From Amphiscolops sp. MND2022 (taxonomy: Eukaryota), in assembly GCA_964187785.1 (NCBI GenBank), contig OZ076409.1, positions 28,646,001-28,710,000 of the forward strand: a DNA stretch of 64,000 nt. The letters run 5' to 3'. Shown here one piece after another: positions 33,561-35,030 of the stretch. Under the pieces are notes generated by a model. The model ran no database searches. It saw only the letters and a program-made list of their open reading frames with translations, and had not been told where the DNA came from. Position 1 is the first letter of the stretch, and each line of letters begins with the position of its first letter. A program made the position numbers and the translations under genes.

Positions 33561-35030
33561 ATGCTCCCAACATCTTAGAAGGGGTGAACCTTCGTTCACA
33601 CTTCTTCTAATACACAAAATGTCTTCCCCATCCGGACATCATATTAAGCAACTAGCTCCTGCAAACTATGTCATATGGGTGAATAGGGGCCATAAATTGG
33701 ATGGGTCGACTGCTTTTGATCCGTGAAGAAACGAGGGTCGGTAAGATCTGACGTAGAACATTTTTCAAGTTATAGTTCGTCGCCCCGCTCAAGGTTTAAG
33801 ACAGTAAAGTTTTTTTAAATATGCAAAAGGACACTATTCTTTAATACAACAATCGCATGCTGAAACAAAAACCCGATCAATCGGTTGTTAAGGTTAACCG
33901 GTATTTGAAGAAAGAAAATGTGAAAGCCGTTCCGTTTGACAAAGGGGCGGGTTTTTGCTTGCTAACATCAGAGCAATACGGGGAGAGGCTCACGGATATA
34001 CTCAGAGGCCCACAATTTCTGGAGCTCCCGCGTCAGAAAGAGGAACCATTAATAAAATCGGAAAAGGCCCTCAACGCCAAAATGATGACTCTGTATAAAC
34101 AGAAGATTTCGAAAGAACATTACGAATCAATGCGCTCGGTTGGAGCTCAGCCGGCGAGACTCTATGGTCTCGCGAAGGTTCAAAAGGACGGAACACCACT
34201 CAGAGCAGTCCTATCCCTTCCAGGAAGTTGTTATCAGAATTTGACGCGCGTTCTATATTCGTATTGCAAAGACATTGATGAAGGACGGATTCAAACCTCC
34301 TCTCAAAAACTAAAGGAGAAGCTGATGGGAACTACCTTAGACGATGACGAGTGCCTTATATCACTGGACGTGAAAAATCTTTACACGAACGTACCAGTAG
34401 ATGAAGCTATAGAGTTAGTGACTAAATTGGCATATGATGGGCTGGAGCCCCCTCCCTTCGATAGGGCAGTTTTTCAGAAGCTCTTACATCTAGCTCTTAC
34501 CAATGTTTTATTCAAATGTTGTGGCCGGTGGTATCGTCAAACCGAAGGTTTGACCATGGGGTCATCTCTTTCCGTGGTGCTGGCCAACATTTGGATGAAC
34601 ACTTTTGAGGACACCCTGGCTAGAGTTTAACCGATATCGGTACGGAACAATCCAAAGGACAACATCTTTCCATGTGGCGGATGTGGTGAGAACGTGGAAG
34701 ACAACGAGAAGGCGGTATTATGTGATGGATGCTGTCTGTGGTTCCACCAACGATGTGTGGAAGACGACATAAACTTGATGACCGACAACGAGTACTGGTT
34801 CTGTGGATGCACGACGGAGATCCCCAAAAGAGCTAAGATCTTTGCTCGTTATGTCGACGACATCATGAGAACAGTGAAGAAGGCGGATGTTGACACTCTC
34901 CTTAAGATGGCGAATAGCCTCCATAGAAAACTTGAATTCACAATGGAATTGGAAAGTGAAGGAGCGTTGTCTTTTTTGGACATGAAGATCATCCGACACC
35001 AAGATAGCCTTAAAACGAAGTGGTTCACCC

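Follow-up and report, generated by a model that had tools for sequence, protein, structure and literature searches.

Introduction

Penelope-like elements (PLEs) of the Penelope/Poseidon type have a single open reading frame (ORF) in which the reverse transcriptase (RT) is followed by a C-terminal GIY-YIG endonuclease (EN), a DKG motif, a CCHH pattern in the EN, a linker that lacks a zinc finger, direct repeats at the termini that carry a hammerhead-like core, and 5'-truncated and tandem copies (PMC8557442, in the part consulted). The animal element described here shares these features, the hammerhead as a core pattern, and differs by a 60-90-aa insert containing a PHD finger between RT motifs RT4(B) and RT5(C), which is missing in PHD-less relatives.

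PHD fingers have been found within PLEs before: five Chlamys families carry them, in three cases in the RT2a-RT3 interval and in two within the EN, and the same portion of that paper mentions no PHD in the B-C interval and no PHD for the clades with a C-terminal EN (PMC8557442, in part). Like the Chlamys elements of Chlamydomonas, ours has its PHD in frame inside the single PLE ORF and, as in three of the listed families, within the RT. The Chlamys elements, however, have an N-terminal EN, occur in green algae and hold their PHD between RT2a and RT3(A) or in the EN, whereas the present finger is located between motifs B and C of an animal element whose EN is C-terminal, and was thus gained independently. 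The presence of a PHD finger in a PLE RT has thus already been published for another site in algae (PMC8557442, in part), and the B-C site in an animal lineage appears to be new. We found no literature report of a PHD between B and C in PLEs with a C-terminal EN, although an earlier annotation in Repbase/Dfam or in a subscription paper may still exist; the portions consulted of a 2026 bioRxiv paper and of PMC9911081 contain nothing on this architecture.

The first-pass annotation of this locus had stated that retroelement PHD fingers are usually found in LINE ORF1. PHD fingers in ORF1 of CR1 non-LTR retrotransposons are cited in the consulted part of PMC8557442; the statement overlooks the Chlamys insertions published in the same paper. 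The fingers of non-LTR elements (CR1 ORF1, and the elements L120, L127, L131, L133 and P0249 of this study) resemble the PLE finger in being a mobile accessory domain, several with a WxCGC end; they are located in ORF1, before the APE, at the C-terminus of ORF2 or between motifs D and E (L131), in contrast to the B-C position in PLEs.

Results

A Penelope-like element in three pieces

The window, i.e. the whole 64,000-nucleotide stretch of the Amphiscolops genome that was analysed, contains a PLE copy with an RT followed by a C-terminal GIY-YIG at 33843-41302 (+), 5'-truncated at 33843. This copy is dead, and it is split into three pieces (33843-35032, 38108-38233 and 40465-41302) because an insert of 3.07 kb and a hAT transposon came in later. 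The frame at 33845-35047 (+) carries PLE-type RT motifs and an internal TAA at 34628-34630. The features are as follows.

33843..35032 (+): PLE piece 1, RT fingers plus the palm that carries the PHD insert (blastn, 93-97% identity to sister copies; RVT_1 E 1.6e-6)
33938..33946 (+): DKG motif, as in canonical PLE RTs (sequence; motif name from PMC8557442, in part)
34364..34372 (+): RT motif A, LDV with the catalytic Asp (sequence)
34547..34594 (+): RT motif B, GLTMG (34547-34561) ... ANIW (34583-34594) (sequence; invariant columns in alignment A1)
about 34613-34666 and 34811-34835 (+): variable linkers flanking the PHD finger (sequence)
34628..34630 (+): nonsense codon TAA, private to the window copy (sense codon in 11/11 other covering copies)
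34667..34810 (+): C4HC3 PHD finger with a CxC end and the pocket-divider Trp at 34739 (PF00628, Pygo matches, ligands, codon constraint)
34850..34861 (+): RT motif C, YVDD (sequence)
35033..38107 (unstranded): later insertion of about 3.07 kb, splitting the PLE ORF (PLE match ends at 35032 and restarts at 38108)
38108..38233 (+): PLE piece 2, start of the thumb region (95% to L002; translation)
38234..40464 (-): hAT DNA transposon lying inside the PLE (10-bp terminal inverted repeats CAGGGATGGA; PF05699 E 2.6e-9)
40465..41302 (+): PLE piece 3, thumb, GIY-YIG endonuclease and 3' end (sequence, translation)
41241..41282, core from 41245 (+): hammerhead-ribozyme-like core CTGATGA...GAAA ACGT TT in the ~85-bp terminal repeat (pattern scan)

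The GIY-YIG domain of the window copy extends from VIYQIEC at 40797 to LTLKL at 41078 and is frameshifted relative to the thumb; its CCHH pattern is present as IYQIECPGC..YVGQT..EH..RH at 40797-40919. The hammerhead-like core pattern had 0 matches in a scan of 30 shuffled windows, and a comparable core is found in 6/8 loci of other families. Rfam had no hammerhead match to this core, and the minimum free energy fold of the monomer is not hammerhead-shaped.

The hAT transposon is flanked by an 8-bp target duplication (38226-38233 and 40465-40472) and has an open 633-aa ORF at 38376-40277. The first part of the 3.07-kb insert (35033-38107) matches several short contigs of the RNA run, and this insert is therefore probably a repeat. 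An open frame at 33295-33726 (+), ending 117 bp before the PLE, has a weak match to ZIP zinc transporters (PF02535 E 1.3e-4, below cut-off) and is possibly a host exon, in which case the PLE would lie in an intron. A degenerate GATCTTCG-rich tandem repeat is located at about 32000-32830, and a similar repeat flanks copy L013 of the family.

Class of the element

By the following features the window element classes as a PLE, probably of the Penelope/Poseidon type. As expected of a PLE RT, DKG is found at 33938 and TERT is among the top structural matches. The C-terminal GIY-YIG with CCHH is present in the window copy; among 15 aligned relatives, 7 match PF01541 at E<=0.01, with scores under the Pfam cut-off in both proteins for which they are listed. 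Pseudo-LTR or tandem structures are represented by a terminal repeat of ~85 bp found at either end of L070, a 181-bp repeat in L054, a partial tandem in L053 and a tandem array in L055. The linker columns of alignment A2 contain no CX2-5CxxC of the kind expected for the extra RT-EN linker zinc finger of Neptune and Nematis. Naiad/Chlamys elements, with an N-terminal GIY-YIG and a CxC domain before the RT, are ruled out by the C-terminal EN of the full-length ORFs, and the Hydra clade, in which CCHH is absent and DKG is replaced by DKT, by the presence of both CCHH and DKG. All but one of the 15 members of A2 match PF00628, the exception being the PHD-less P0010.

The PHD finger between motifs B and C

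The first-pass annotation had described an in-frame C4HC3 PHD-like finger between GLTMG..ANIW and YVDD, with one nonsense codon at 34628 of the RT frame. Both are there: the TAA noted above lies in that frame, as do eight zinc ligands (C34673, C34682, C34721, C34730, H34745, C34754, C34802 and C34808; cluster 34673-34810), and the finger scores 29.3 bits against the Pfam PHD profile PF00628 (E 8.8e-7). Since this exceeds the curated cut-off of 24 bits, a failure to match PHD profiles, which would have spoken against the claim, did not occur, and a chance cluster of Cys residues is ruled out by the score together with the codon constraint described below. The final ligand pair is CxC (WFCGC), where CxxC is usual, and the aromatic residue expected ahead of this pair in a PHD finger is present. 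Counted from the motif B Gly to the Tyr that opens YVDD, the window copy has 101 residues, compared to 33 in 97/98 PHD-less relatives and 34 in the other.

Pygopus PHD fingers are the top PDB sequence matches of the window finger (E 7.7e-7), and those of PDB entries 2vpd, 3zpv and 2xb1 are its best matches in both sequence and fold; the window family shares with them a lid aromatic, V, D and the pocket-divider Trp. The window finger has F, V and D at the positions of the Pygo lid Tyr and of V and D of EVND, following the description of these pocket residues in part of PMC3851687. The Pygopus finger nevertheless ends in CxxC and ours in CxC, no BCL9/HD1 partner is known here, and of the pocket residues only W and V are conserved from one PLE family to the next.

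Structure prediction

Modelling with AlphaFold, suggested in the first-pass annotation, yielded an RT that resembles TERT, with the PHD as a domain of its own. The AlphaFold2 model of the RT of an intact family (471 aa, 133 sequences) has a pLDDT of 91.5, with values of 81-94 in the finger blocks and 69-76 in the linkers, and places the finger between the motif B helices and the strands that run up to YVDD. The best Foldseek match is TERT (E 6.4e-8); in a second structural comparison a group II intron RT ties with it (TERT Z 15.9, rmsd 4.2, 336 aligned). The finger is thus predicted to be a separate cross-brace domain on flexible linkers that leaves the TERT-like palm intact. From general RT structure, we expect the B-C loop at the palm's outer edge and remote from the active site. 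Modelled alone, the window finger has a pLDDT of 77.7 and best matches Pygo with a Z of 6.5, under the tool's clear-match level (rmsd 3.0, 56 aligned). Predicted in complex with zinc and an H3 tail of 35 aa without modifications, this finger scored 0.18 against a mark of 0.34, a value that speaks neither for nor against binding.

Other copies of the window family

A DNA search of the same genome gave at least 21 matches, i.e. 20 loci besides the window, of which 11 span the whole B-to-C segment. The finger region is kept in 11/11 of these, so the doubt that other copies might lack the segment is answered. All eight zinc ligands are present in 6/11 spanning copies and a ligand is changed or deleted in 5/11; three copies are open from the palm into the endonuclease, with frames of 496-521 aa. 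A one-off insertion is ruled out, as no copy is cleanly without the finger: L012 has an internal deletion and so does not represent a clean absence, L013 and L019 are parts of a single copy in which a deletion covers motif B, while L014-L018 as well as L020 begin within or past the finger.

Selection on the finger

Across 77 pairs from 13 family rows, the finger has a mean amino-acid identity of 0.41; the two RT flanks have 0.51 and 0.44, and each linker has 0.12. At codon positions 1/2/3 the identity is 0.52/0.60/0.36 for the PHD; the corresponding values are 0.57/0.69/0.34 and 0.53/0.66/0.34 for the two RT flanks, and 0.33/0.37/0.25 and 0.27/0.34/0.25 for the two linkers. Ten columns of the PHD do not vary in the 13 family rows, with synonymous variation present, and the ligands are invariant in 12 families, with the exception of the last Cys (>=90%). 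These patterns indicate that coding constraint on the PHD finger matches that on the RT and that the finger is selectively kept. A 578-nt contig from an RNA library (one seawater metatranscriptome, share 0.04, contigs only) crosses B-PHD-C without a joint, which argues weakly against splicing of the finger, as the contig may derive from DNA.

Finger-bearing families and their hosts

A protein search of the Amphiscolops genome gave 149 matches, and the loci fetched comprise 14 finger-bearing families (<75% identity) compared to 2 finger-less ones, with B-to-C spacings of 98-126 and 33 residues, respectively; with the protein set described below counted in, finger-bearing spacings span 95-126. 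Several finger-bearing families have intact ORFs of 853-905 aa. L053 and L052, on separate contigs, are 99.4% identical over 2809 bp, the terminal repeats of L054 are 99.4% identical, and L055 (G000:C1820) is a head-to-tail array of 2743-bp PHD-bearing PLE units with 99.3% identity that occupies much of a 39-kb contig, several units having open 853-aa frames. Finger-bearing RTs have therefore been copied recently.

Among 129 stored proteins, the B-C loop is short in 98, has a finger-type insert in 24 and a low-complexity insert in 2, and could not be parsed in 5. The two with low-complexity inserts (P0083 and P0085) are finger-less PLE RTs with an unrelated 38-aa insert at the same loop, which is therefore permissive. 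When 1.84 billion proteins were searched with a profile, 10 matched at E<=1e-30, all covering most of B-PHD-C. Two protein clusters include named proteins of the acoel Symsagittifera roscoffensis, and these two are the named members among 30 clustered proteins. The search for this architecture proposed at the outset was thus productive: besides the 14 families in the genome, RefSeq XP_063724333.1 of S. roscoffensis has a PHD finger in its RT palm, so the architecture exists in at least two genomes. The closest Amphiscolops match to the XP_063724333.1 family is only about 50% identical. In the main text of the S. roscoffensis genome paper, Penelope and PHD have 0 occurrences, and a search of the ESM Atlas gave no usable match. 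The in-frame PHD insertion within the RT palm is real, selected and lineage-wide.

Origin of the finger

With the insert removed, finger-bearing rows fall on one side of a branch in both RT trees, which are quick, unrooted searches of subsampled rows with unnamed relatives and no named outgroup. In the first, which took 45/98 PHD-less rows, they make up 32/79 rows (SH-aLRT 100); in the second, with 20 of those PHD-less rows, 9 PHD-less rows from the same genome and 10 near-duplicate PHD rows left out, they make up 24/55 (SH-aLRT 99). Because other PLE RTs are without the insert, the simplest reading would be that the finger was gained once.

The source was probably a non-LTR element bearing the same CxC-ending finger, to judge from motif and profile similarity. 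Fingers ending in WxCGC are also found in LINE-like elements of this genome and of the database, and LINE-borne CxC fingers have 4 of the top 5 scores against a PLE-finger profile among the 14 non-PLE fingers tested, a set that holds no cellular PHDs. These LINE-borne fingers are possible donors of the PLE finger; no donor separated out in a PHD-only tree, which gave long-branch warnings.

Discussion

What might a PHD finger do in the palm of a PLE RT? The pocket-divider Trp is present in 29/29 fingers and the Val following it is conserved too, while an EVND-type Asp occurs in only 2/29. The window finger has a net charge of -8 and three others -2 to -6, making only 4/29 acidic; 15/29 are net basic (+2 or more), up to +10. 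The first-pass annotation had read it as a chromatin reader that may target insertion; the architecture behind that reading is borne out, and the reader role is a proposal. With a probability of about one half, the finger would anchor the complex of RT and endonuclease on chromatin at the insertion target during target-primed reverse transcription. After a single gain at a tolerant loop on the outer palm edge, the finger would hold the complex on the nucleosome, in acidic families (that of the window among them) by way of the H3 tail, while the GIY-YIG nicks and the RT copies. The tether is favoured by the universal Trp and, in the window family, by the Pygo-like lid aromatic, V and D and the charge of -8; it is weakened by the 15 basic fingers compared to 4 acidic ones, by the scarcity of the Asp, and by the existence of a basic PHD that binds nucleic acid. 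The Trp may also have been retained for reasons of fold.

This precedent, the basic PHD of VIN3, binds DNA/RNA and not H3 (PMC9640981, in part) and lends some weight to the alternative that the PLE finger is a nucleic-acid-binding accessory, and not a histone reader, that grips the RNA template or target DNA to aid processivity or template jumping. Such a role would suit both the basic fingers and the location of the finger on the polymerase itself, but it accords poorly with the acidic fingers of the window family and three others, and VIN3 is without the pocket-divider Trp that all 29 PLE fingers have (same source, in part); we consider it rather unlikely. PHD fingers are also known to bind non-histone partners (PMC9640981, in part), and a surface charge that varies widely around a fixed zinc core is what one would expect of a module with a quickly changing partner, such as a host factor (e.g. 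in silencing evasion) or another RT in RT-RT assembly. With the histone pocket-divider Trp and the next Val conserved, this explanation seems improbable. That the finger is captured DNA tolerated as a neutral passenger at a permissive loop, or a retained intron, is very improbable: the low-complexity inserts of P0083 and P0085 do show that this loop takes unrelated sequence, and PLEs can have conserved introns (PMC8557442, in part), but a passenger is largely refuted by the ten invariant PHD columns with synonymous variation and by the RT-like codon pattern next to randomised linkers, and the uninterrupted 578-nt contig counts weakly against an intron, as it could be DNA.

If the finger does act as a chromatin tether, a wider scheme can be imagined, which we regard as tentative and more doubtful than the tether itself: a putative histone reader in the palm would steer reverse transcription and integration by H3K4 methylation, families would have been retuned to chromatin niches through acidic or basic surfaces, and an RTE-like LINE of this genome would have done likewise at another RT loop. 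To our knowledge, how PLEs choose their insertion sites is poorly understood. The presence of PHD-bearing and PHD-less PLE families in one genome provides a built-in control on reader-steered integration of the non-LTR type. In a telomerase-like polymerase, the B-C span marks a spot where grafting occurs naturally and is tolerated: it holds a whole folded domain in recently copied elements. The pattern of PHD fingers moving among transposons as accessory modules, seen in Chlamydomonas, is now extended to animals.

PHD fingers were also observed in LINE-like elements. L120, L123 and L133 have WxCGC PHD fingers at the C-terminus of RTE-like ORFs, and in L127 and P0249/P0373 such a finger lies ahead of the APE-RT, after a putative 2A-like motif, the label being our assumption. 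L131 is a second, independent case of a PHD within an RT in this genome: its RTE-like LINE ORF (L131:2075-4681(+), G000:C6:40589000-40598000), with an APE-type N-terminus and an RT, carries a PHD finger (PF00628, 26.6 bits) in the interval from RT motif D to motif E. The L131 family has 33 matches, 10 of them near full length at 86-100% identity and one in a 1078-aa open frame.
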